Part shown: one piece after another, positions 3,930 to 36,912 of the stretch
Position numbering within the stretch: position 1 is the stretch's first letter
Layout: the number at the start of each line of letters is the position of its first letter
DNA from: Parcubacteria group bacterium SW_6_46_9
GTDB lineage: Bacteria; Patescibacteriota; Minisyncoccia; Phycocordibacterales; SW-6-46-9
Length of the DNA: 41,337 bases
Reading direction: 5' to 3'
Assembly: GCA_003022255.1 (NCBI GenBank)
Contig: PXPA01000011.1
Location: 1 to 41,337, forward strand
Translations under genes and position numbers: made by a program
Notes under the pieces: model-generated
Told to the model about the DNA's origin: nothing
The model's database searches: none
Seen by the model: only the letters and a program-made list of their open reading frames with translations

Positions 3930-5346
3930 ATGTCAACCGATACCGTAACCCGTTGGCCAAACCGCTGGGTCTTCATTCTTGCTGCCGTTGGTTCGGCGGC
4001 CGGATTAGGAAACATCTGGCGATTTCCCTTTCTTGCCTTCGAGCATGGCGGAGCTGCGTTTGTTCTCGTGCTCATTCTGGCGACACTCATTGTTGGTTTG
4101 CCACTTTTAACCTTAGAAACCGGGCTCGGACAGAAAACAAAAATGGCTGCTCCGGCCGCTTTGGGTAGTATCAAAAAACCGTTACGTCTTGTCGGCTGGA
4201 CCGCGCTTGTGTTTTCCTTTTTTGTGATTGCTTATTACATGTCTGTGCTTGGCTGGGGGGTTGATTATCTGGCCAGCTCATTTGATCTGCTGTGGGCACA
4301 GGAGACCAGCTCGTACTTTTTTGATACTGTCTTGAACATTAGCGAAAGCCCCGGATCAATTACCGGCTTTTCCTGGCCGGTTGTGGCTGGTTTTGTTATC
4401 AGCTGGATTCTTGTCTACTTTTCTGTCTGGAAAGGTGTAGAAAGTGTCAGCAAAGTGGTTATCTGGACGGCAACACTACCGATGGCATTGCTTGTTATCC
4501 TACTTGTTCGCGCCGTGACACTTCCCGGTGCTGGGGCCGGCGCAAGTATTTTTCTCGCTGTCTTTGGCCTTTGGGATTATGATCGCTTACAGCAGCTACA
4601 ACGCGGATACGGCTCCGGTACTGGCAAATACCGTCTGGATTCTTATCGGTAACATTATCGTGAGCCTTCTCGCTGGCGCCGCCGTCTTTGGCACCTTAGG
4701 GTACATGGCAGCAGAGCAGGGAACCCAAATTGCCGAGGTTGTGGCCGGCGGACCATCACTAGTGTTTGTCGTTCTGCCGGAAGCGATATCCTTACTGCCT
4801 GCTTTCTCAAGCCTGTTTGCCGTCGCCTTCTTTGCCACGATTGTCATGCTGGGAATCGACAGCGCCTTCTCAATCCTGGAAGGTATTGCCGCTGGGTTCA
4901 AGGATGCCCTCCCTAATCTTTCCGTAAAAAAAGTTACGCTAACACTCTCTGCTGTTGCTTTTGTTGCCGGCCTGCCTTTCGTCACCGATGGTGGCTTGTA
5001 TCTGCTTGATACACTTGATCACTTTACAATCAACTATGGGTTAGTGGCAATCGGTGCACTGGAGGCCGGGATTGTCGGCTGGCTGTATGAAGATGAGCTC
5101 AAAGCGTATATCAACAAACGTTCAGGCTGGCAGGTGGGAAACCTGTGGAGCATAGCTTTAAAGTATGTGATTCCGCTGTTTTTGGCTGGTTTGTTTATCG
5201 TGAATACGTATCAGGAACTGCAGGCGCCGTATGAAAGCTATCCTGTCTGGCTACTACTTGCTGTCGGAGTTATTCCGGTTGCGCTAGCACCAGGCATTGC
5301 TTATCTTGTCGATTATCTCACATTCCAAAACGCAGAAACTGAGTAG
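3930..5346 (+). pseudogene. sodium:neurotransmitter symporter (SNF/NSS) family transporter, disrupted by a frameshift and a probable small deletion near 4528-4560
   Basis: ORF 3930-4652 has WPNRWVFILAAVGSAAGLGNIWRFPFLA. ORF 4528-5346 has AQVFFSLSLAFGIMIAYSSYN. These are consecutive NSS motifs in two frames. About 20 aa normally lying between TLPGA and QxFFSLS appear to be missing. Confidence 0.7.
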
Positions 5347-5371
5347 GCGTAAGAAAGTATCCAGTTCAATG

Positions 5372-9517: not shown

Positions 9518-11416
9518 TTACTGTGAAGAGATAGTGAGGTTCCATATACTCCGGCGGTTCACAGCTGTGAGACCACCGTTTCCGGGTAGCAAATGAGTAG
9601 TGCTATCCACAATGTGATCCGTGTCCGAGAACCGCTTGGCCGGAGCCAGTCGGTTCCCGTTCGGTTCGATGCGAACAACACCATCATCAGTTGCAGCCAA
9701 CAAGAAATTACCGGCTGCAAGCGTGCCCGTAATCTTCCCCAGCCAACTACCATCACCGGCAGTTGTCTGGGCTTTCGCCTGTACCGTCCCGTCATCTCCG
9801 ATCAGATAACAGCGATTGCGACGACGCCCCTGCTCGTTTACGGTCTGGAAAAACCAGATCCGATCACGACATATAGACGCCGTAGCATTGATAAGCTGGC
9901 CGGTAATCGGCGGGACGGTTACGTTTTCGTTGATACCGCGATAAGCAGTATCAAACACGAAATACTGCTGGATCTTACCAGCCCGATAGAAGCCGAAACC
10001 GTGCTTATCTCCAACCCAGAATAATGTTCGGTCTTTGAGGGCACTGCCAACAGACTGCGCATAATCCACGCCAAACTTTCCTGCTCGCTTGAGATCACCA
10101 TTGCGAACCCAAAACAGCTTGTCGCTGGTTACATCAAAAACGGGCTGCCGACCGAATGAGTCGACAGAAAGACGATCCTTTGATCTGTCCTTGCCAACCA
10201 AATGCATCGTTCCGTCCACCCCGAAGATCGTGGTATCACCATACAGTCGATACCGCGTAAGTGGGCGAACCGGTGCATCAGCTATCGGTGTGTCGTCTTC
10301 ACGAAAGAAGCGGCCGCCCTTGTGATACAGCCACTGCAGCTTATCGTTTTGGCAATCAGCAAACATAATTCGTCCGCTGGTGCGAAACACACGCGTCGCC
10401 GAAACATCATTTGTGACACGCTCGACTGTTTGGTCGCCACCACCGTCACTGCACTCCGGACACTGACTACGAGCGTGCACAAGACCACAAGACGAGCATG
10501 TCTGCCAATTTATGCCGGCAAGCAACTGTTCAGGAAACGGTTCGCGCCTGTCTTCGGTAAATACCTCCGAAAAGAAGTCAAGCAGATCCGGTGGCAGCAC
10601 ATCTGGAGTTCGAGCCGGTTTCGGGTACTGCACAGCGGAATCAAAAATTGTCACCCGACTGAGGATCCGCTCTGATCGTGACAGTTGATCGTCTCCGTTT
10701 TTGGGTCGATGAATACCGCTGTAAGGACTGGCAAACAACAACGACTGCAGCAAGAGAACACAGAACGCATACCAGTCAGACATCGCGTCATGGGGCTCTG
10801 CCAGTGTTAGCCCGCCGGTCGGATTCTGAATGCCATTCGAGCGGTTACTTGTTGTAAGCTTCGTTGGGTCAGCAAACCGTTGTGTGAATGTTCGGCAAAG
10901 AAAGTTGGCAAACTGATAGCTGTCAACATCAATCAAGCGCGGTGCGGTGCCCTTTACGAACACATTCAGGTCACTGAAGTCACCGATTACAATACCGGAC
11001 TCATGTAGCTCTTTGACTACGTTCCGCAACGCAGAAAACACGCTAACGACGGCATTTTCATCAATACTCGACCGGAATGTTTTGTCGGCGTAGCGAACAA
11101 GCAACTCTGCCCTCGTAACACGCTGCATACTGTAGCCGACAATAGCTCCGCTATCGTCTCTGGCTAGCGATTGCGGTGTTACTAATGCATTCGGGACCTG
11201 TTCGGGAAACTGTGGTAGCTTCTTTTGGTGTTCGGCAAGACGCTTGCGGGCTGCCTGCTTTTGTTCTGGTTGTCCGGCATGGTCCGGGTGGTCAGGTTGT
11301 TTGAATAGCTTCAGCACCCGATTGTTACCTAAGCGGTAAATATCGGCCTCGCCACCACTATCGATTATGTTCTGTGTGTCAAGCGAGTGAGTGCGACCGT
11401 CAACTTGAACCTTCAT
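9518..11416 (-). CDS. Ser/Thr protein kinase-like protein with a central Zn-ribbon and a large C-terminal repeat (beta-propeller-like) region
   Basis: AGGAGGTG-N6-ATG at 11416. Kinase-like elements are VLKLFK, HESGIVIGDFSDLNVFV and LIDVDS. The Zn-ribbon is CSSCGLVHARSQCPEC at nt ~10454-10498. The 300-aa C-terminus has recurring aromatic/Gly-Asp strands. Confidence 0.75.
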   Translation of the reverse strand: MKVQVDGRTHSLDTQNIIDSGGEADIYRLGNNRVLKLFKQPDHPDHAGQPEQKQAARKRLAEHQKKLPQFPEQVPNALVTPQSLARDDSGAIVGYSMQRVTRAELLVRYADKTFRSSIDENAVVSVFSALRNVVKELHESGIVIGDFSDLNVFVKGTAPRLIDVDSYQFANFLCRTFTQRFADPTKLTTSNRSNGIQNPTGGLTLAEPHDAMSDWYAFCVLLLQSLLFASPYSGIHRPKNGDDQLSRSERILSRVTIFDSAVQYPKPARTPDVLPPDLLDFFSEVFTEDRREPFPEQLLAGINWQTCSSCGLVHARSQCPECSDGGGDQTVERVTNDVSATRVFRTSGRIMFADCQNDKLQWLYHKGGRFFREDDTPIADAPVRPLTRYRLYGDTTIFGVDGTMHLVGKDRSKDRLSVDSFGRQPVFDVTSDKLFWVRNGDLKRAGKFGVDYAQSVGSALKDRTLFWVGDKHGFGFYRAGKIQQYFVFDTAYRGINENVTVPPITGQLINATASICRDRIWFFQTVNEQGRRRNRCYLIGDDGTVQAKAQTTAGDGSWLGKITGTLAAGNFLLAATDDGVVRIEPNGNRLAPAKRFSDTDHIVDSTTHLLPGNGGLTAVNRRSIWNLTISSQ

Positions 11417-16747: not shown

Positions 16748-17884
16748 TTAAGCATTGCGACGCACTATTTCTGCCGCTTTATGCTTTTTCTCGCCTGTGA
16801 CCTGACGAGTATGCTTATTTAACCCCAAAGGAAGAGCGGGGTCTTCCTCCATGCTAACTAGCTCAACCTCAACATACGCACGCCGAACCGGTTCTTTGAT
16901 TACGTCAATAACAAACCGATACCCTTCAGCGTATAGGTAATACCGGTCTTTTACCATACCAGGGTAAACGGATTCGTTCACCTCATCCCGGAATTCACTT
17001 TTAGTAATATCTTCAGAAGTCTCGCCACGCTCACCAAAATCTTCTGTTGGTCTTTTAGTGGTCTTAATATACTCAACTTCACCAGTCTCCATACCCTTTC
17101 TGCGACGGACGCGTTTTTCCACCTCTGCAGATATTTTCGTATATGCCTGCACCAGCTCGACCCCGGAAAGATTATGCTCATCCACAAATTCTTCTGCGAA
17201 ACCGTAGTCAGTTACCAGGTGTTTTCTTTCTTTTTCACGAGCATTCGGCATATGAAGCACCCGATTAAAAGCACTTATTGCTCGCATGACCTTCTCTGTA
17301 AATCCGGTACTGTTATCGATAACCCTATGGTTGCGGTGGCTTGACCAGGCGCTTTTAGTTGCTTTGTCTAATTGCCTAGCCTCTTCTGGGCTTTCAGTGC
17401 GGGCAGTATTATTTTCAGTCGTATAATGCTCTTTGGCTCCATTTGCGGCTGTTACCATGTGCACCACTAAATCATACCGAGATAGTATGTCGGTATTTGC
17501 AGACACGCCAAGATCAGCCACAATTTCCTCAAAGATCGATCGTTCTACGTAGGCCAGCGAGTCGAAAATAGCACGGTCACAGATTAGTACCCGCTCTTTA
17601 TCTGTATTCATTTTAAGCAACCCACGACAGCGGATGTTCTCTTTTCTGATTTGCTCTCGTATGATTAGCTCTTGGAAGTCATAATCAGTGAGATTTTCCG
17701 GTGTGATATTTGACCGAATGAGCCCGGTCGGCGTCTCTGATAGGGTTGCCACAGCAAAATCATGTCTTTGCAAAAGCGTAACCACCCTATTAATCAATGC
17801 TGTTTTTCCAGCACACGGGCCTCCAGTCACTACAATTACATTGACATCCTTGTTTACATTCGTCTTTATAGCAGTCGGGTTCAT
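16748..17884 (-). CDS. P-loop kinase (NadR C-terminal / AAA_28-like) fused to a CYTH (triphosphate tunnel) domain
   Basis: The Walker A is VVTGGPCAGKTAL. The second half begins REKERKHLV, giving the ExExK signature of CYTH, and ends in beta-strand-like YVEVELV. Confidence 0.6.
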   Translation of the reverse strand: MNPTAIKTNVNKDVNVIVVTGGPCAGKTALINRVVTLLQRHDFAVATLSETPTGLIRSNITPENLTDYDFQELIIREQIRKENIRCRGLLKMNTDKERVLICDRAIFDSLAYVERSIFEEIVADLGVSANTDILSRYDLVVHMVTAANGAKEHYTTENNTARTESPEEARQLDKATKSAWSSHRNHRVIDNSTGFTEKVMRAISAFNRVLHMPNAREKERKHLVTDYGFAEEFVDEHNLSGVELVQAYTKISAEVEKRVRRRKGMETGEVEYIKTTKRPTEDFGERGETSEDITKSEFRDEVNESVYPGMVKDRYYLYAEGYRFVIDVIKEPVRRAYVEVELVSMEEDPALPLGLNKHTRQVTGEKKHKAAEIVRRNA

Positions 17885-20426: not shown

Positions 20427-20458
20427 ACTTAATCCAATGGTAGCAAAACCAAAGGGTG

Positions 20459-20880
20459 TGCTCAGGGTGGGAACCTCACGTAGACATAACTTCTTTTGAA
20501 ACCAGAGTGGGATTCCTCTCCAGTCAGCTGCCTGACGGCAGCTGCTTCCGAGCCGGACCTCGCCGTCTTCGCCTTCTCGCTTCGCCCCTCACATGGATTC
20601 GTTACATAACTTTGATGAAAAACTTTACAGCTTGGTACCCATCAATGGTCCATGCGAGGGGCTTCGATCAAAACTCAGACATGGCTGCGGCCTTCGAATC
20701 CCACAAAAACATGCATAAATGCATGTTTACCTAGCTATATTATAAGCAAGTACCGAGCTAAGGTGCTTAACTTGTAAGTGCCTTAGCTCGGTTCCTCGGA
20801 AAAGAGAGGCAGTGAGCGAGAAATCGCGCGAACGTCAGAAGATGAGTCGACGAAAGGGTTTTTCTCTCCGAGCCCTATTG
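20459..20880 (-). repeat. non-coding island downstream of tRNA-Leu, ending in a degenerate copy of the tRNA-Leu 3' end (20459-20475); contains the f-module of the tRNA-linked repeat family and two long hairpins
   Basis: 20459-20475 tgctcagggtgggaacc compares with tRNA-Leu 20881-20894 tgcccagggcggga (12/14). On the minus strand, gattcgaaggccgca, atgtctgagtttt and gacggcgaggtccggctcggaagcag parallel the Arg- and Val-linked copies. Hairpins lie at 20707-20728 (10-bp palindrome plus T-run on the minus strand) and 20752-20792 (12 bp perfect, extendable to 18 bp). Confidence 0.6.
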
Positions 20881-20973: not shown

Positions 20974-21639
20974 TCATAGCTGCATATCCACTTTAGCTAA
21001 TGCTTCTTTGATTTTCAACCGCTTTCGTGAAAGGTACGTAATATCATTAGAGTGATACATATTTCTTAACAAATTCATAGACTCATCTTTTGCGTATTTA
21101 AGTTTATAAACCTTACTATTTTTCGATTTACAAATATGTCCACGAATATCAATAAATTTGTTTATATTCTCTCGTAGCCAGTCGATATGGTCTTCACTGG
21201 CTGAATTAAATACGGTATAAAACATATAACTAGATTCCCAGCGCTTATCCCAAAAGCTGTAAAAACAACCATCCCCATCAAAAAGACCGCGTAAAAAATC
21301 AAGAAAATACTTATCGGGAATATCGATTGACCCAATTGTTTTGGACTTGGCAGTTGTCAGCCCAATGTCTTCTAAAAAAGAATAAAACAGCACATCACCA
21401 AACTGAACTCTTCCACATCTTCCACCCCTGCCGTTCTCTTTTTCAGATATTTTTACATGCTCTATATCTAAACATCTCACAAAGTTTTCTAGCTGCTCTT
21501 CATCTTGAGAAGTAAAATCGAGATGCCTGCCATTACTTGAAAGACATCCATCGGCTGTAAAAAGCCCGACTGCATATGCAAAATCAGGAGACCAGGTAAT
21601 ATCAACTACTCCTTTGGGTTTTGGGCCAGGTTTTGCCAC
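20974..21639 (-). CDS. free-standing double-motif LAGLIDADG homing endonuclease
   Basis: There are two LAGLIDADG-type motifs, FAYAVGLFTADGCL and FLRGLFDGDGCF, about 100 aa apart. The stop codon is 8 nt upstream of the tRNA-Leu 5' end on the same strand. Confidence 0.85.
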   Translation of the reverse strand: MAKPGPKPKGVVDITWSPDFAYAVGLFTADGCLSSNGRHLDFTSQDEEQLENFVRCLDIEHVKISEKENGRGGRCGRVQFGDVLFYSFLEDIGLTTAKSKTIGSIDIPDKYFLDFLRGLFDGDGCFYSFWDKRWESSYMFYTVFNSASEDHIDWLRENINKFIDIRGHICKSKNSKVYKLKYAKDESMNLLRNMYHSNDITYLSRKRLKIKEALAKVDMQL

Positions 21640-22379: not shown

Positions 22380-22986
22380 TCAAGAAAATACGGCGTCTTT
22401 TGCCGACTGAAAGTCTGGGGGCAAATCTGTTTCGGCGGCAATGGTTTGACCGTCTGGTGTATTAAAGGTAATTCGGCGCGCATGGAGCGCCTGACGATAT
22501 AATTCACCAAAACACTCTTTGCCGTCTGCATACAAACTGTCACAAACTACCGGATGGTGGATTGATTTCAGATGCACGCGGATCTGGTGGGTGCGTCCCG
22601 TTTTTGGATACGCTTGGCTCATCGATGGTAAATGACGGATTGGTTATTTCGCCGTACACAAGTGTTTGGTACTCTTTTTTAATCGTTCGGTTTTTAAACT
22701 GCTTTTTAATATGCTCGTAGGCTTTTTGGTTTCGTACCACAATCACCACACCGCTCGTTTCTTTATCCAGTCGATGAACAATGCCGGGCCGCGGTATATC
22801 CGGCTTACCCTCCCTTTGGATTGGTTCACCAACTCCATCTGTTTCCGGGTAGTTTTTCTGGATCCACTGAGCCAAATGCGGCCTGCCTGTTCGGCCGTCA
22901 CCATGAACCATCAAGCCGGCCGGCTTGTTTATGACGACCACAAAATCAGTTTCAATCACAACAGACACTTGGTCAAGTAAGCTCAT
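22380..22986 (-). pseudogene. RluA-family pseudouridine synthase, frameshifted and apparently internally deleted
   Basis: ORF 22540-22986 has VVINKPAGLMVH and GIVHRLDKETSGVVIV. ORF 22380-22622 has TGRTHQIRVH in another frame. About 40 aa usually lying between these motifs seem absent. Confidence 0.6.
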
Positions 22987-23948: not shown

Positions 23949-24052
23949 GGGCGGTTAGCTCACCCCAAGAGTACTTCTTCGTCAGTAAACTGACTCAGGG
24001 CGCAGCTGGCAAGTTTGCCAGCTTCGCTAACCACTTTTTAAAATTTAACTAT
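23949..24052 (+). repeat. exact copy of tRNA-Val nt 1-14 (23949-23962), followed by the repeat-family core (b-module, 23961-24006) and a 9-bp hairpin
   Basis: gggcggttagctca is identical to 24053-24066. The core is caccccaagagtacttcttcgtcagtaaactgactcagggcgcagc. The hairpin agctggcaa/ttgccagct lies at 24004-24023. Confidence 0.7.
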
Positions 24053-24125
24053 GGGCGGTTAGCTCAGCTGGTAGAGCGTCTCGTTTACACCGAGAATGTC
24101 GTAGGTTCAAGTCCTACACCGCCCA
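24053..24125 (+). tRNA. tRNA-Val (anticodon TAC)
   Basis: The sequence is gggcggttagctcagctggtagagcgtctcgtttacaccgagaatgtcgtaggttcaagtcctacaccgccca. The anticodon stem is tctcg/cgaga and the loop is ttTACac. Confidence 0.92.
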
Positions 24126-24311
24126 CAACGAACAAAGTGAAAAGTGAGTTGTGGCGGTGAGCAAGCAACTTTCTTTGCTTGCATTCGGGCTTGAAAGCCG
24201 CAACTATATCTGAGTTTGCCAAGCTCTGCTTGGCGGGGCGTAGATAGTGAGGCTCGGCGCGAAGGCAAAACTCGTCAGAGTTTTGACCGAAGAGAAGTCC
24301 TACACCGCCCA
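24126..24311 (+). repeat. hairpin-rich tRNA-Val trailer (e- and f-modules), ending in an exact 20-nt copy of the tRNA-Val 3' end plus flank
   Basis: 24295-24314 aagtcctacaccgcccacaa equals 24109-24128. The trailer start caacgaacaa...gagttgtg parallels the tRNA-Arg trailer caacgagcaa...gagttgtg. atatctgagttt at 24206 is shared with 25594. Confidence 0.7.
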
Positions 24312-24321
24312 CAAATTCAAA

Positions 24322-24359: not shown

Positions 24360-24601
24360 TTAGATGTGTAGGACTCGAACATGGAAAGGGGGCGGGAAAA
24401 CTCCAGTTTTCCCGTGTTGGAAAGCAGTCCGCCGCAGGCGGACGTTGAGAACCGTGGGATAAAACAGAACCTTCTTTCTGTTATATCCGATTCTGCTCTT
24501 GGCGGAAATTTCGAATGTCGAATGTAATGAGACAAGAAATAGGAGGCCTCGAAGAGGTTAAAACGCAGGAGCGAAGCGACGAGTGGTGAGGGTCCTACAG
24601 C
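24360..24601 (-). repeat. inverted member of the repeat family, bounded by inverted tgtaggac / gtcctaca ends
   Basis: The left end is tgtgtaggactcgaac, the reverse complement of a T-arm/acceptor-like gttcgagtcctacaca. The right end is gggtcctacagcacaca. 24565-24595 gcaggagcgaagcgacgagtggtgagggtcc matches the type-B core seen at 33455-33493 and 36830-36870. Confidence 0.5.
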
Positions 24602-24696
24602 ACACACAAATTTTGTTTAAACAATCAAAGAAAAAGGCTCTGCCCGAGAGAGCGGACAGAGCCTGTAGTCGTCCCTGAGTGACAGAGACCGAGAGG

Positions 24697-25323
24697 TCAA
24701 AATGTTCGGGCTAACCCGAACTGGAAAAAGAATTCTTCCTGAGTGATCTCGTACTGTGTTCCGACAATCAGCCCGGTTTTGTTGTTGATTGAATGAGTGT
24801 ATTTTACACCCACCTGCTTAATGATGTAATCAACAGGCTTAAAGTCAACCAACGCAGCACTGAGCGTGAACGGACCTGGAGTGTAAAAAGCCACTACACT
24901 CCGAGCAAAAAACTCCGGACTCATTTCAAATCCAGATTCTTGTGTACCGGCTGACCATTCATGCCAGAGCCATACAGTTAAATTGTCGATCGGGTGGAGG
25001 TTAAGCCGAACCCCGCTCCACGGCACACCGGAAAATTGCCCAACGTTACCCGATATTGTCATCCAGCTTGTTACCGGGTATGTGCGGACGAAGTAAGCTC
25101 GCTCAGAATTGCCTTGAAGCGCGAACCAGTTGCCGGGCTGCTCTTTTTGGTACGTCCAGCGCACATCCAGCCCAGACGTGATAACTCCCGTACCGAAAGT
25201 GACTACTCGAGAACTCAATTCAAACCCACCAACCTCCTCCGGAGCTACCTGGGCAATGGTGTTACCAGGAAAGCTGAGGAAAGCGAGTGCGAGAAAGCAG
25301 AACAAAAAGCAACGAGGATTCAT
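24697..25323 (-). CDS. secreted protein with beta-strand periodicity and a C-terminal Phe (outer-membrane beta-barrel-like)
   Basis: Likely start is ATG at 25323. The signal peptide is MNPRCFLFCFLALAFLSFPGNTIAQ. The mature ~185 aa show alternating hydrophobic patterns and end in FFFQFGLARTF. Confidence 0.55.
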   Translation of the reverse strand: MNPRCFLFCFLALAFLSFPGNTIAQVAPEEVGGFELSSRVVTFGTGVITSGLDVRWTYQKEQPGNWFALQGNSERAYFVRTYPVTSWMTISGNVGQFSGVPWSGVRLNLHPIDNLTVWLWHEWSAGTQESGFEMSPEFFARSVVAFYTPGPFTLSAALVDFKPVDYIIKQVGVKYTHSINNKTGLIVGTQYEITQEEFFFQFGLARTF

Positions 25324-25534
25324 TGGAGGGTGCTCAGTTGTGAAGGAAGATAACGAACCCTGAACTATGTAAATATTAATACATATAAGCATAATAGTCA
25401 AACTAAACACGTGTCGCTTTCCGCTGGTTTTACATTACTCTCAACCACTAAAATCGCTCCGATGCAGCACTACATTGGCTAAATCTAGTTAGAATGCTTA
25501 TGCCAAGCGTGCTTTAACCAGATGAGCGTCTCTT

Positions 25535-25694
25535 GGGGGTAGAACTTCACTCTAAGAGTATCTCCTCGTCAGCAAGCTGACTCACAGTACAGCATATCTG
25601 AGTTTCAGCTTTGCTGAAGCCGAGGACGACGGGGTGCAGGCTACGAAATTTCTGCATCGAAAGCATTATTTGCAGTCGAATCCTACACCGCCCA
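25535..25694 (+). repeat. contiguous 160-nt copy of the repeat family (degenerate 5' tRNA-like piece, b-core, f-module), ending in a 15/16 copy of the tRNA-Val 3' end
   Basis: The start is gggggtagaacttca. The core is cactctaagagtatctcctcgtcagcaagctgactcacagtacagc. The middle is atatctgagtttcagctttgctgaa..., and the end is tcgaatcctacaccgccca. Just upstream, gagcgtctc equals tRNA-Val nt 21-29. Confidence 0.65.
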
Positions 25695-25787
25695 CCAATT
25701 AATACTTAAGCATTTTTGTTTGATTATATTAGCGTAATATTACATAATATTTTTGTGTCTGTTCCTTTCATAAGAACTTATTCTGAT

Positions 25788-31843: not shown

Positions 31844-32113
31844 CTAATCGTTGATTAGCTCTACTGAAAGTAAAACGATACCAAGCAGATACACCGCTTT
31901 GGCGATGTAGTTAAACAAAAACCCGCCACCAAAAGACACGTAGATTACATTTACAAAAAACAATAGTCCGGAAATAATAAGTGCTTTCTCGAAAAACGTT
32001 AGATCTACTGTGATATTATCTTCTGTCATCATTCGTATTATATCAGCCAGATTATGGTTTTGCGGTCTTCGGTTACTGACGAATGTCGCAAACGCGATAT
32101 TCTCCGCGGGCAC
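31844..32113 (-). CDS. small membrane protein
   Basis: 89-aa ORF with two TM segments, abutting the next gene with a 1-nt gap. Confidence 0.45.
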   Translation of the reverse strand: MPAENIAFATFVSNRRPQNHNLADIIRMMTEDNITVDLTFFEKALIISGLLFFVNVIYVSFGGGFLFNYIAKAVYLLGIVLLSVELIND

Positions 32114-32128
32114 TTATTTATTTTGGTG

Positions 32129-32144
32129 GTGCCTCCGGGAGAAA
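32129..32144 (-). repeat. degenerate copy of the tRNA-Arg 3' end, marking the distal boundary of the Arg-linked island
   Basis: gtgcctccgggagaaa matches 33604-33619 gtgcctccggtaggaa at 14/16. It lies 16 nt upstream of the 31844-32113 gene start. Confidence 0.55.
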
Positions 32145-32403
32145 CTTACATAAAAATAACTTGCTCTGGGTTCCTCAACTTTGAAAGCTGTAGTTTTTCA
32201 AAGTTCAACCCTAAACAATGACACCTTTGCGGTTGGTCGATCGTCAACACAGGAACAAGTGTAAATATCTTTTTAGATTTTTACACAACGATTTTATGCA
32301 AAATTATAAAACTTATCCTAACATGTAGTTTTTTTTAAACTATTTCCACATCACTACACGATAAACTAAACTGCATTTGTTAGTTTAGTAATAACAAACT
32401 TGC

Positions 32404-32931
32404 TTAATTATCTTCCCCTTGCGTTTTTTGCTCAACTTTTTCATTCTTTACTCTTTCTGTTTCTTTCCGTTTTTTATATCTTTTCTTTTTCTGGCTCTTT
32501 TTTATGTTTCTCCAGGCCGCCTTTAGAGCTGGGTAACCACTCTGGAAAGCGCCCACGGTGCCAGCAAAAATAAGTGCACCATGGACTTCTGAATTTTCAA
32601 GCGAAGAGGACATAGCTATAAGCGCCGGTATTGCCCACCTGATCCCCTCACTGATACTCTTACCGGCAAATCGGTCAACGCTTTTCTGCAACTCTTCTAA
32701 CTCTGCCTTTTGTTCCGGTGTCAACTCACCAGCAAGTTCTTCTATTTCATCTCCCCACCCCAGATCATTGGCCAGCTCTCGAATATCTCTCCGAATTTCT
32801 TTAAAATTATCAACAGCTGATTGGAGTTCTTTCTCTAGTTCTTCTTCACTCATTTCTGAGATCACTTTTTCCTCCTCTTTATCAGGCAGGCCCTCATCCG
32901 GATGATTGCTGGGAAAGTTTTCTATAGTCAT
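32404..32931 (-). CDS. hypothetical protein: acidic coiled N-terminal half, hydrophobic centre, basic tail
   Basis: 175-aa ORF inside the Arg-linked island. Its start overlaps the stop of a 50-aa upstream ORF (ATGA). Confidence 0.5.
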   Translation of the reverse strand: MTIENFPSNHPDEGLPDKEEEKVISEMSEEELEKELQSAVDNFKEIRRDIRELANDLGWGDEIEELAGELTPEQKAELEELQKSVDRFAGKSISEGIRWAIPALIAMSSSLENSEVHGALIFAGTVGAFQSGYPALKAAWRNIKKSQKKKRYKKRKETERVKNEKVEQKTQGEDN

Positions 32932-33080
32932 GATTGTTTTGTTTGCTTGACTTCTTGTAACTTTTCTAAGTAAGCTTTGGTATATTCAGCAACACCATTA
33001 AGATGCCGCATTAAGGCAAGCTCTTCTTCCTGTGTTGATTCGTCTTTATTTATTTTTGTTATAAGCTCATCAATGTCCAT
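32928..33080 (-). CDS. 50-aa hypothetical protein, translationally coupled to 32404-32931
   Basis: Own translation gives MDIDELITKINKDESTQEEELALMRHLNGVAEYTKAYLEKLQEVKQTKQS. The stop TGA overlaps the next ATG. It is below the ORF-track length cut-off. Confidence 0.4.
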   Translation of the reverse strand: MDIDELITKINKDESTQEEELALMRHLNGVAEYTKAYLEKLQEVKQTKQS

Positions 33081-33184
33081 ATATTGTTATTATACTCATT
33101 ACACAAAAATAAAGCAAAATAAAAATAACTGCGGATCTCGGTTTCTACCGAATACACTTTCCGGATAAAGACTCTCTGCAACCA

Positions 33185-33604
33185 ACTACCTAACGGGAAC
33201 TGCTTTCGAGTCGGGCCTCGATACCGTCGCCCTGTCCTTCTACAAGCTCATGACAGACTTGGATATACTGTGCTGTGAGTCAGATTACTAACGAGCAAAT
33301 ACTCTTGGGGTGCACCCTTCGATTCCTGACGAATATCGCAGTAAATACTAGCAGGAATCCCTTACGGTAAATCGGCTAACGCCGATTTCCTCCAGACCGA
33401 GCCTCGATATCCTCGCCTTGTGCTCACCAGGCTCGCACAAACCCGGATATATCTGTGCTGGGAGCGAAGTGACCGAATACTCGTGGGGTGCGGCTTTCGA
33501 TTCCTAACGAACATGCAAAACTGTACTAGTAGGAATCCTCTTCGATTCCTACACGAACGCACCAAACGGTGCGTTCTCGGAGTCACAACTCGCGTTGCTC
33601 GTTG
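33185..33604 (-). repeat. tRNA-Arg trailer (e-module) followed by two tandem copies of the repeat family
   Basis: The cores are 33270-33314 (gtgctgtgagtcagattactaacgagcaaatactcttggggtgca) and 33455-33493 (gtgctgggagcgaagtgaccgaatactcgtggggtgcgg). Two 9-bp hairpins are gaacgcacc/ggtgcgttc and gtaggaatc/gattcctac. The orientation is co-directional with tRNA-Arg. Confidence 0.65.
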
Positions 33605-33676
33605 TGCCTCCGGTAGGAATCGAACCCACATCTACGGGTTAGAAACCCGGTGCTCTATCCGTTGAGCTACGGAGGC
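33605..33676 (-). tRNA. tRNA-Arg (anticodon TCT)
   Basis: The reverse complement is gcctccgtagctcaacggatagagcaccgggtttctaacccgtagatgtgggttcgattcctaccggaggca. The anticodon loop is ttTCTaa. Confidence 0.9.
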
Positions 33677-33865
33677 AGTACTTCGCCCCTCACCCAGACT
33701 GTAATCTAACATACAAAATTTTGAATTCGTAACAAGACAACGATAACAATCTGGGTGAGGGGCTGCTTTCCTTCACCAAACCACGGAAAGCAAAACAATA
33801 GCGCACAACCTACTTGCCCTCCCGTAGCTTGAATAAAATGAAAGCGAAGGTGGGCTACGGAGGCA
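33677..33865 (-). repeat. tRNA-Arg leader: exact copy of tRNA-Arg nt 1-11 plus its 1-nt 5' flank (33854-33865), its complementary partner, and a 13-bp long-range hairpin
   Basis: gctacggaggca at 33854-33865 equals 33666-33677. The partner gccctcccgtagc lies at 33816-33828. The hairpin cccctcacccaga (33686-33698) pairs with tctgggtgagggg (33750-33762). Confidence 0.6.
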
Positions 33866-33915
33866 TAGATGCTCTGACAGTATAAATAATACTAAGTAAA
33901 GTAAGTTATGTAAAA

Positions 33916-36739: not shown

Positions 36740-36900
36740 CGAAACGAACGAGCACCCCTTTTCTGAAGAGGCTCCGCAGCCGACAATGCATGGTCTACGA
36801 TTGTCGGTGAGGACTGAACCAAAATCGACGTGCTGTGAGCGAAGCGAGGGAATACTCTTAGGGGTGCTGGCGATTTTGGTGTACTCTTCAGAAAACGGGG
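36740..36900 (-). repeat. orphan copy of the repeat-family core, not next to a tRNA, enclosed by a 9-bp stem
   Basis: The core is 36830-36870 gtgctgtgagcgaagcgagggaatactcttaggggtgctgg. It is enclosed by ccaaaatcg (36819-36827) and cgattttgg (36871-36879). An outer pair is ctgaagag (36763-36770) with ctcttcag (36884-36891). Confidence 0.55.
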
Positions 36901-36912
36901 TGCGAGAGAGCG

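Follow-up and report, generated by a model that had tools for sequence, protein, structure and literature searches.

The 1.55 kb of DNA that follows a tRNA-Arg gene in Parcubacteria group bacterium SW_6_46_9 is an array of at least four nested and partly decayed tRNA-tail units, small elements in which strands copying or complementing the 3' end of the tRNA accompany a conserved structured RNA. The stretch that we analyzed, hereafter the window, comprises 41,337 nt of the forward strand of contig PXPA01000011.1; the array is read on its minus strand. Outward from tRNA-Arg it holds unit 0, unit D, unit E with two open reading frames (ORF50 and ORF175), a relic tRNA 3' end and the start of an older unit (Table 1). 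We consider it probable that these units are small, non-coding, non-autonomous mobile elements. A first-pass annotation of this DNA had drawn a single integrase-less island of 1.5 kb from the tRNA to a degenerate repeat of its 3' end. The individual features that it listed (a displaced tRNA 5' fragment with a pairing complement, a long-range hairpin, trailer hairpins, tandem copies and the ORF pair) are all present, and ARAGORN and Rfam confirm an intact tRNA-Arg at 33676-33604. The tandem copies are no filler; they are copies of the conserved structured RNA, the functional heart of the elements.

The plan of a unit is apparent when the flanks of 23 tRNA genes, taken from the window and from five relatives, are compared. 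Most of these genes are followed, on the same strand, by 130-190 nt closed by a copy of their own 3' end, often perfect over at least 14 nt. Read 5' to 3' on the tRNA strand, a unit opens with a copy of the tRNA 3' end that spans T-loop nt 57 to the discriminator or CCA. A short trailer comes next, then the complement of the acceptor 3' strand, a near-perfect hairpin (H1) and a second complementary strand, antisense-T, which matches T-loop nt 57-60 and the T-stem 3' strand. A conserved three-way-junction core of ~100 nt follows, and cargo is optional. The 3' copy of the newest unit doubles as the working 3' end of the tRNA gene. One edge of the copied segment always falls at T-loop nt 56/57 or 57/58, and the other varies from the discriminator to past the terminator, giving repeats of 17 to >49 nt.

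Minimum-free-energy folds of six units have a common overall shape. Both antisense strands pair with a 3' copy, forming an acceptor-like helix and a 7-10-bp helix, P1; H1 protrudes between the two, and P1 closes the three-way junction. The closing helix of the core is thereby predicted to mimic the acceptor/T-arm stack of a tRNA. Within this frame the T-stem 3' strand and CCA are copied, the T-loop is replaced by the core, and the acceptor-like helix is often imperfect. The acceptor-5'-like strand stands out when anchored directly 5' of H1, where at least 5 of 7 positions pair in 22 of 31 cognate comparisons versus 31% of non-cognate ones; a scan of the whole spacer, before anchoring on H1, was uninformative (5.76 versus 5.60 pairs).

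The core defines a family that reaches well beyond the window. One strict 25-nt core pattern, searched against metagenomes, matched 58 loci, from which 8 chance matches (five distinct sequences) were removed before counting. Upstream of 36 oriented matches a same-strand tRNA ends about 60-90 nt away (Val-GAC, Arg-TCG, Arg-CCT, four Leu, Gln, three Ser and Met), and in 25 of the 36 a copy of the last 15 nt of that tRNA (≤3 mismatches) lies about 140-195 nt downstream, CCA included where it is gene-encoded. Nearly all other genuine matches sit at contig ends or behind another unit or a displaced tRNA fragment. A covariance model, R1, made from a 33-sequence alignment and its consensus fold, found 79 copies at E < 0.001 in 57 loci; the related sequence behind these counts comes from 57 sources and totals 437 kb. 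Where the upstream flank is present, the copies are almost always just 3' of tRNA genes. Named hosts belong to the Patescibacteria (L037, L048 and the window clade; handles of this kind denote the loci compared) and the Elusimicrobiota (Candidatus Avelusimicrobium, L052 and L054), and the record names give rumen and human gut among other metagenomes as sample origins. The one species-level match in the genome collection carries the label Candidatus Saccharibacteria, and relatives of the window's flanking membrane protein are labeled Paceibacterota.

Base changes in the core follow its predicted pairing. Ten hand-trimmed cores contain 22 pairs with compensatory changes. In the 79-copy alignment, 93.2% of the cells form standard pairs, compared with 69.6% after shuffling (0 of 500 shuffles as high) and 37-44% when partners were slid out of register. 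Cells changed on both sides number 484 (157 shuffled, 57-88 slid), the covariation score is 0.527 (0.174 shuffled, about 0.07 slid), and covariation is present in all six helices. Moreover, G-U pairs exceed A-C pairs by 200 to 52, which favors selection on an RNA read in the direction of the tRNA. These patterns show that the core is under selection at the RNA level.

The tRNA-tail family is apparently undescribed. With Rfam 15 at the gathering threshold, tRNA alone passes in the window and ten related loci, and permissive Rfam searches over the units gave only chance-level matches; neither ARAGORN nor Rfam detects a unit as a tRNA or transfer-messenger RNA (tmRNA) type. Three patterns run against the 2.9 million viral contigs of IMG/VR returned nothing except two chance matches in coding regions, and a consensus-unit query found no match in GenBank phages or PLSDB plasmids. 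In the open-access literature we found nothing on the family, only general background on tRNA islands and tRNA fragments; a description under another name is possible.

The Arg locus differs among related strains by individual units. Relatives were obtained through contigs that encode the flanking 336-aa protein or ORF175, and five alleles were informative; a PilM scan of genome-collection contigs returned a single relative, L003. The first-pass annotation had proposed a search for an empty site, and L005 (flanking protein 81% identical) has one: a tRNA of the same type is followed by 105 nt with a terminator-like hairpin and then the operon, where the window holds 1554 nt, and homology with the window returns at 32046. 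Also missing from L005 is a ~190-nt block upstream of the window's tRNA (33677-33870), to which the displaced 5' fragment and the long-range hairpin adjoining tRNA-Arg belong. L004 (flanking protein 96% identical) has the upstream block, its 5' fragment 96% identical, followed by a complete unit 0, unit D and then the operon directly. Unit E, both ORFs and the relic are absent from L004, where 1224 nt of the window (33316-32093) are missing; the gap is edged by a 24-nt direct repeat (33340-33317 and 32090-32067, 21/24 identical). This repeat is the unit's own start, so the ORF-bearing segment is bounded by a unit start and not by the tRNA.

In L001, whose 336-aa gene is 100% identical and whose locus is 97.8% identical in nucleotide sequence, the whole of unit 0 is missing: the tRNA is followed by caagcgaagtgca, GTGCCTCCGG, an intact hairpin and unit D. 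Here GTGCCTCCGG is the perfect complement of the acceptor 3' strand, that is, the acceptor-5' strand of unit D. In L012 (336-aa gene 88% identical in nucleotides), two extra units separate the tRNA body from an old 3' end, gagattcctaccgaaggcacaa; the trailer that this old end retains is the one found behind the intact tRNA-Arg of the window. L003, a more distant relative (336-aa protein 71% identical), has two small units without ORFs. The window, L001, L004 and L012 thus represent four differing structural alleles among strains that are about 92-100% identical. Variation of the same kind occurs at other tRNA genes: tRNA-Ser is followed by a unit with a second type of core (type-2; see below) in L003 and by a type-1 unit in L005, and tRNA-His has no unit in the window and a type-2 unit in L008. 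L006 has a type-1-like unit behind tRNA-His by eye and by a partial BLAST match only; R1 missed it. Sequence comparison among strains thus establishes the DNA behind tRNA-Arg as inserted and polymorphic, in keeping with the first-pass annotation on this point, and the differences fall at units and not at the ends of one element. Base composition shows no sharp break across the array, merely an AT-rich tail behind ORF175, and so neither supports nor refutes a foreign origin.

The degenerate repeat gtgcctccgggagaaa (32129-32144), a 14/16 match to the tRNA-Arg 3' end, had been open to dismissal as chance. A scan of the window at ≤2 mismatches returned tRNA-Arg itself and this site alone, and none of 100 shuffles gave any match. 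In addition, window 32144-32061 is 87% identical to L012 51-134, a stretch that consists of an intact tRNA 3' end and the DNA following it, which identifies the repeat as a genuine displaced tRNA 3' end. The downstream operon had been placed 16 nt beyond the repeat, at a GTG at 32113; this was wrong. The 62-aa membrane ORF at 32032-31844, 96 nt away, is predicted to be the true first gene of that operon, and so the chromosomal boundary of the array, and the intervening 96 nt hold the 5' part of the oldest unit. At the other end of the locus, the sequence of tRNA-Arg nt 1-11 occurs in two exact copies in the window versus 0.04 expected.

Units 0, D and E are preserved to different degrees. The second trailer hairpin of unit 0 (33552-33529) is an antisense-T strand fused to its sense counterpart (sense-T). 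The 90-nt core that once separated them is deleted in the window and kept in L004 (647-736), and the loss occurred between two TCGAAG repeats that are both still seen in L004; R1 matches the remnant only weakly (33525-33556, E = 0.2). Unit D is matched at 33361-33459 with E = 1e-12 and unit E, 71% identical to it, at 33162-33288 with E = 0.02. Their cores are the tandem copies noted before (family D5), spaced 178 nt start to start and 82% identical over a 44-nt core. In L001 the acceptor 3' strand, trailer and acceptor-5' strand still form an intact palindrome. The window has lost it at two junctions, 0/D and D/E, where ..cctRc-tagta.. is left.

Table 1. Positions of the Arg array, its flanks and the other tRNA-linked units in the window
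Feature	Position	Strand	Remarks
Displaced tRNA 5' fragment, gcctccgtagc	33864-33854	minus	Exact copy of tRNA-Arg nt 1-11
Complement of 5' fragment, gctacgggagggc	33828-33816	minus	25 nt downstream; predicted 11-bp helix with fragment
Long-range hairpin	33686-33762 (33762-33750 with 33698-33686)	minus	Predicted 13+ bp stem, AT-rich loop
tRNA-Arg(TCT), intact	33676-33604	minus	ARAGORN; Rfam 70.3 bits
Unit 0, remnant	33529-33603	minus	Trailer caacgagcaacgcgagtt, acceptor-5'-like strand gtgactccgag, H1, 9-6-9 hairpin
Unit 0 H1 (first 9-bp trailer hairpin)	33576-33555	minus	
Second 9-bp trailer hairpin	33552-33529	minus	gtaggaatc-gaagag-gattcctac
Unit D	33351-33508	minus	Antisense-T gttaggaatcgaa, type-1 RNA core, sense-T ggattcctgc
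Module X in unit D	33454-33488	minus	35 nt
Unit E, RNA part	33125-33340	minus	H1 3' half and antisense-T, type-1 core, decayed sense copy
Unit E start	33340-33317	minus	H1 3' half and antisense-T; direct repeat 1
Module X in unit E core	33269-33310	minus	42 nt
Decayed sense-T/acceptor copy of unit E	~33150-33172	minus	
TATAAT box upstream of ORF50	33089-33094	minus	By sequence reading; not listed by consensus scan
ORF50, first cargo gene of unit E	32928-33080	minus	50 aa
ORF175, second cargo gene of unit E	32404-32931	minus	175 aa; ATGA overlap with ORF50
AT-rich non-coding tail of unit E	32145-32403	minus	GC about 0.30-0.37
Relic tRNA-Arg 3' end, tctcccggaggcaCCA	32126-32144	minus	CCA encoded, unlike present gene
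Oldest unit, truncated	32047-32125	minus	First 60 nt and ~20 nt of core
Oldest-unit trailer, ccaaaataaataa, then acceptor-5'-like gtgcccgcgg	32113-32104 (gtgcccgcgg)	minus	
Oldest-unit H1	32103-32081	minus	
Oldest-unit antisense-T, gtcagtaaccgaag	32080-32067	minus	With H1 half, direct repeat 2 (32090-32067)
Small membrane ORF	31844-32032	minus	62 aa; gene calls of 62 aa in L001 and L004, 61 aa in L012
tRNA-Val unit, proximal, type-1	24127-24316	plus	R1 24181-24307, E = 4e-23; family D6
tRNA-Val unit, distal, type-1	25520-25697	plus	R1 25566-25690, E = 0.035; ends gaatcctacaccgcccaCCA
Module X in distal tRNA-Val unit	25550-25591	plus	
ORF237	24697-25410	minus	Between proximal and distal tRNA-Val units
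tRNA-Leu(GAG) unit, type-1	20458-20707	minus	R1 20503-20707, E = 2e-23; tRNA 20965-20880

The two ORFs had been proposed as the cargo of the whole 1.5-kb island. They are indeed cargo, carried by the third unit (about 33330-32129) alone. The N-terminal half of ORF175 is an acidic coiled coil, its middle is weakly hydrophobic and its tail very basic, and the TATAAT box ahead of ORF50 is a candidate promoter for that gene. Word-indexed and full HMMER searches found a single relative of ORF175, the 93% identical strain variant P0121, and it is on this basis a predicted ORFan; searches of ORF50, ORF175, ORF237 and neighboring ORFs against Pfam, PHROGs and PADLOC gave nothing significant. Both genes are intact in L012, free of frameshifts, with 8 of 153 nt differing in ORF50 and 20 of 528 in ORF175. 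Identity between the window and L012 is 96.2% (96.0% at third codon positions) for ORF175 and 94.8% (86.3%) for ORF50; the core gene next to them, which encodes the 336-aa protein, reaches 88.2% (71.8%). At third codon positions the cargo genes show about seven times less divergence than this neighbor. L004, a closer strain with 91.7% nucleotide identity in the core gene, has no cargo. Since the cargo is less diverged than the core gene and absent from the closer strain, it was exchanged between lineages long after their chromosomes diverged. These divergence values show that one unit, the cargo-bearing unit E, has moved horizontally.

Units also differ in the tRNA 3' end that they supply. Unit-specific variants affect the terminal triplet (CAA or CCA), the T-stem 3' strand (cctac or cctgc) and the acceptor 3' strand (ccggaggc or ccgggggc). 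The present tRNA-Arg gene of the window does not encode CCA, and its trailer begins with CAA. More generally, working genes have CAA where relics and the L012 gene have CCA (window 33604-33606 versus 32126-32128 and 24126-24128 versus 25695-25697; L012 64-66). It seems from these variants that the last-arriving unit decides the 3' terminus of the tRNA gene. Displaced tRNA 5' fragments occur upstream of other intact genes as well (window 23949-24035, plus strand; L006 2791-2897; L008 about 9520-9560). In the window and L006 alike, tRNA-Val nt 1-14 are followed by module X, a short insert described below, and in L008 the present gene is preceded by a 22-nt piece of a different, L006-like tRNA-Arg allele. 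It appears that replacement extends to whole tRNA genes or to their 5' parts.

We propose that a new unit would enter the tRNA gene between nt 56 and 57, supplying a fresh 3' end and displacing the old one outward together with all older units. Both antisense strands would then pair with the displaced 3' end and close the core. Decay would proceed by recombination between the repeated pairing strands, which would fuse, truncate or delete units; loss of the palindrome of acceptor 3' strand, trailer and acceptor-5'-like strand would likewise remove or join them. Movement may depend on a factor encoded elsewhere or on homologous recombination on the tRNA-derived arms, and the antisense strands and the 3' tRNA copy could serve in target recognition, as guides, or in priming of the insertion. 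In a bolder version, which we put forward as speculation and regard as rather unlikely to be right, the units would be protein-less, RNA-guided or RNA-primed elements homing to tRNA genes at 56/57 in Patescibacteria and Elusimicrobiota; an RNA of ~110 nt with programmable strands would replace the tRNA 3' end and duplicate its target.

Several observations weigh against mobility. The island, which the first-pass annotation had already called integrase-less, and the ~40 ORFs scanned in the 41-kb window yielded no integrase, transposase or reverse transcriptase, and no mobility enzyme was found in any unit; the act of insertion is something we infer from nesting. Units within one genome are ~65-72% identical, unlike an actively transposing family; long residence or a host function would account for this level just as well. 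In some loci (L027, L061) the direct repeat runs through trailer and terminator, and unequal crossing-over would also yield repeats reaching past a terminator. At several Elusimicrobiota-type loci a terminator-like hairpin stands between tRNA and unit, so that transcription of the unit is not assured. The G-U excess becomes modest, at 80 versus 49 A-C pairs, once one invariant helix is removed, and the family counts draw on only ~440 kb of sequence.

Two other loci bear on possible sources of mobility functions. A free-standing LAGLIDADG-type homing-endonuclease ORF (window 20974-21639, minus strand) ends a few bases before tRNA-Leu(GAG) and has the same placement in L008 (14497-15162), where the flanking protein is 63% identical; this nuclease is worth testing as a candidate trans-acting factor for the units. 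In Candidatus Avelusimicrobium, which belongs to a different phylum from the window, a conventional island occupies one and the same tRNA-Val (L052 8768-11106, L054 2349-5498). It contains a 334-aa ORF that is integrase-like by eye and an ORF judged Fic-like from its N-terminal sequence only, and it ends in a displaced tRNA 3' part; a terminator and then a type-1 unit come directly after it.

Other explanations account for parts of this record. The units could be host genes: each would be a tRNA-linked small RNA gene whose ends mimic an acceptor/T-arm minihelix, matured and stabilized by RNase P, RNase Z or exonucleases and the CCA-adding enzyme, and arrays and relics would arise by local duplication, gene conversion with the neighboring tRNA and decay. 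Strong conservation of RNA structure across two phyla is what a host RNA would show, and the closing helix with its acceptor-like strand has minihelix geometry, with H1 where the D and anticodon arms would be. In the 3' copies CCA is present where it belongs to the tRNA gene, the 65-72% identity of units within one genome marks them as old, and the majority of the examined tRNA genes in these small genomes bear one. A host gene is harder to reconcile with orthologous tRNAs that lack a unit or carry other core types or unit numbers, with four structural alleles among close strains, and with new units that bring their own 3'-end variants (CCA versus CAA, ccgggggc versus ccggaggc). Moreover, many copies are visibly decayed, and the divergence of the cargo unit falls far below that of its chromosomal neighbor. 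We regard host small RNAs as an unlikely explanation. Much less probable still is a cis-acting switch on tRNA maturation, in which the antisense strands would have two alternative partners: pairing with the upstream tRNA's 3' half would block its folding, pairing with a downstream decoy copy would release it, and the core would be the sensor that decides. The patchy, fast-changing distribution among orthologous tRNAs speaks against such a switch, and so do arrays with several units, decayed copies and cargo genes, the terminator-like hairpins between tRNA and unit at many loci, and the expectation that the tRNA would fold before the antisense strands are transcribed. What invites the idea is the position of the unit, on the same strand and immediately 3' of the tRNA, together with sense and antisense copies that both match that particular tRNA and a core that is an aptamer-sized three-way junction with invariant junction nucleotides.

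The units might be scars of integrase-bearing phages or integrative elements, their core being the arm region of an attachment site left by repeated integration and imprecise excision. A tRNA gene followed by foreign DNA and a partial 3' repeat is the classical attL/attR footprint, islands stand in tandem at tRNA genes elsewhere (for example, PMC4891358), and the island with an integrase-like ORF shares its tRNA-Val with a unit in L052 and L054. That island lies upstream of the unit, however, and is separate from it. The core shows compensatory pair changes rather than conserved protein-binding repeats, recurs beside many tRNAs with no integrase nearby, and is absent from the 2.9 million viral contigs, the GenBank phages and the PLSDB plasmids; nor do the displaced 3' ends follow a T-stem 5' strand or T-loop, the core site of such integrases. 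We consider this origin improbable. The single non-autonomous island of 1.5 kb with a two-ORF cargo, running from 33604 to 32129, has the correct outer boundaries when set against the empty site of L005, and it contains no integrase. Inside those boundaries, however, it is single units that distinguish L001, L004 and L012, the segment with the ORFs has the unit-start repeat at its edges instead of the tRNA, and three separate matches to the RNA model are followed by a relic unit past the repeat. We give the single island very little credence, as the strain comparison already contradicts it.

The reading that we favor, nested tRNA-tail units, has most in common with genomic islands at tRNA genes, cis-mobilizable elements (CIMEs) in tandem with integrative and conjugative elements (ICEs), and captured archaeal elements. 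These likewise sit at the 3' end of an intact tRNA, leave a direct repeat of that 3' end after each element, stack with the older repeats more degenerate, contain no recombinase inside the element and vary among strains. The units differ in being 130-190 nt instead of kilobases long, in having a conserved structured RNA at their center and in bearing strands that are antisense to the 3' end of the tRNA. One core serves many tRNAs in two phyla, no cognate integrase-bearing parent was found, and no integrase-type core site precedes the displaced repeat. We file the units as a variant of tRNA-targeting integrative elements, one that encodes no integrase. They also differ from miniature inverted-repeat transposable elements: they are 65-72% identical, their inverted repeats are target-derived and tRNA-specific, and the repeat length ranges from 17 to >49 nt.

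Target-primed retroposition of the kind seen in short and long interspersed nuclear elements (SINEs and LINEs), along with the 3' tags of the Mauriceville retroplasmid and of plant viruses, is what we take to be a further parallel. Such elements are presumably also small, non-coding and tRNA-related; the 3' junction of the units is fixed at 56/57, their other junction is variable (repeat of 17 to >49 nt), and the 3' tRNA-like sequence of a unit could provide a primer site by annealing to a nicked target. The combination of a fixed 3' junction and a variable repeat length agrees with a retroposon lacking long terminal repeats (LTRs) but is not specific to one. In contrast to SINEs and LINEs, the units have bacterial hosts, lack A-rich tails and a clear 5'-truncated series, and duplicate the target's own functional 3' end, and no reverse transcriptase was found. 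IS110 bridge RNAs and the pairing of exon- and intron-binding sites (EBS/IBS) in group II introns presumably share with the units a constant scaffold and short, variable, target-matching segments that flank a hairpin. Unlike these systems, the units have no adjacent recombinase or intron-encoded protein, both of their guide-like segments complement the same DNA strand and are paired in cis with a copy of the target, and their scaffold resembles neither, with no Rfam match. The IS110 bridge RNA has a DEDD recombinase as neighbor and two internal loops for reading both strands of target and donor; the units have no recombinase and a three-way junction closed by a helix.

Among tRNA mimics, tmRNA, the Y-RNA-like YrlA and viral tRNA-like structures resemble the units in stacking an acceptor-like helix on a T-stem-like helix with an NCCA-type 3' end and in setting a large foreign domain into a tRNA frame. 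The units differ from all of these in that the T-loop is replaced by the core, the sequence copies the upstream tRNA and a genome holds many copies. Several other candidates were rejected. The unit motif CUGAGUU does not match the conserved CUGANGA core of the hammerhead ribozyme, and group I introns, group II domain V and T-boxes have the wrong architecture, in both cases as judged by eye. A retroviral-type primer-binding site is not supported, as there is no CCA complement and the antisense is split by H1. The 9-6-9 palindrome of unit 0 is not a XerCD/dif-type site; L004 identifies it as the deletion product of a full unit. With regard to riboswitches or leaders, the units sit 3' of tRNA genes, and the genes downstream are unrelated and form no coherent set.

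The first-pass annotation had pointed to the same architecture at tRNA-Val and tRNA-Leu, and the R1 matches there (E = 4e-23 and 2e-23) bear this out. The proximal unit behind tRNA-Val (24053-24126) closes with a perfect 20-nt copy (24295-24314) of 24109-24128, and a relic that matches the tRNA 3' end at 12 of 14 positions (20471-20458) comes after the tRNA-Leu unit. A second type of core, type-2, obeys the same flank logic, beginning with antisense-T and finishing with a copy of the tRNA 3' end. The conserved block of this type comprises TTYCCGTGKWGGARAGCAG, a hairpin and GTTGARAACCRWGGG, and it lies behind tRNA-Val, Ser, Arg and His (window 24367-24612, plus strand; L003 about 4750-4925, minus strand; L012 263-560; L008 about 17130-17295). 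Type-2 cores were seen in loci of the Candidate Phyla Radiation (CPR) only and have no Rfam match. In L071 (about 5200-5350, minus orientation), a third kind of insert, gttgaaagtgtgatgctttcaac...gggctaggc, splits a duplicated copy of a tRNA immediately ahead of the T-loop's 3' half, upstream of a type-1 unit.

Smaller modules recur within and outside the cores. Module X is a 35-42-nt insert with the consensus CYCYAAGAGTAYYY...CTCMSRGYRCA, present in the window at 33488-33454(-), 33310-33269(-), 23963-24004(+), 25550-25591(+) and about 36853-36822(-), and also in L003, L004 and L012. Nine copies detected by regular expression lie between ..CA and G, and the additional copy at 36853-36822 precedes C. 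The module is variable in orthologs, with unit D carrying it in the window and L004 and lacking it in L012. We found it in type-1 cores and one type-2 core, in the D-loop of a pseudo-tRNA and in an unrelated hairpin, oriented either way relative to the tRNA; its behavior is that of a tiny independent insertion or a portable RNA module. Module Z (..ggatRRaacagaa..ttctgtt..atccgattct..gaaatttc..acaagaaatagg) is common to type-2 and some type-1 units (window 24440-24560, plus strand; L012 about 430-510; L022, L053 and L061 about 230-270), and because it occurs in both, the cores look modular. The unrelated hairpin that hosts module X in its inner loop is a large one, caccccgttttctgaagag ... ctcttcagaaaaggggtg, between a tRNA-binding-domain gene and pilM (window 36760-36905, minus strand); the region is conserved in L002 and may be another structured RNA.

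Elsewhere in the window we noted several features of protein-coding genes. An SNF (sodium:neurotransmitter symporter) gene is split into two overlapping ORFs (3930-4652 and 4528-5346, plus strand) that cover profile positions 3-122 and 256-499; in L006 it is one gene of 499 aa, and the split copy is probably a frameshift or pseudogene. A pseudouridine synthase ORF (22380-22986, minus strand) has 148 aa versus 244 aa in L006 and L008 and is accompanied by an overlapping ORF of 80 aa, a possible frameshift. In addition, a DUF2330 gene is flanked by pairs of direct repeats (277-317/2899-2939, 78%; 562-619/2617-2674, 90%) that take in a terminator-like hairpin and parts of two small ORFs, which suggests local duplication.

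What had looked like the relic of an island thus belongs to an unrecognized family of structured RNAs tied to tRNA genes, with 79 copies in less than 0.5 Mb of sequence and with hosts in two phyla of mostly uncultured bacteria with small genomes. A constant core between tRNA-tailored strands is an arrangement also found in guide-bearing mobile RNAs and makes the units a candidate for a new targeting mechanism. Even if that idea is wrong, the units explain many of the "partial tRNA" fragments in these genomes. They suggest that the last unit to arrive can exchange the working 3' end of a tRNA gene, and with it the presence or absence of an encoded CCA. The units also offer a route of gene flow, here for two ORFan genes, in lineages where classical mobile elements are considered scarce.

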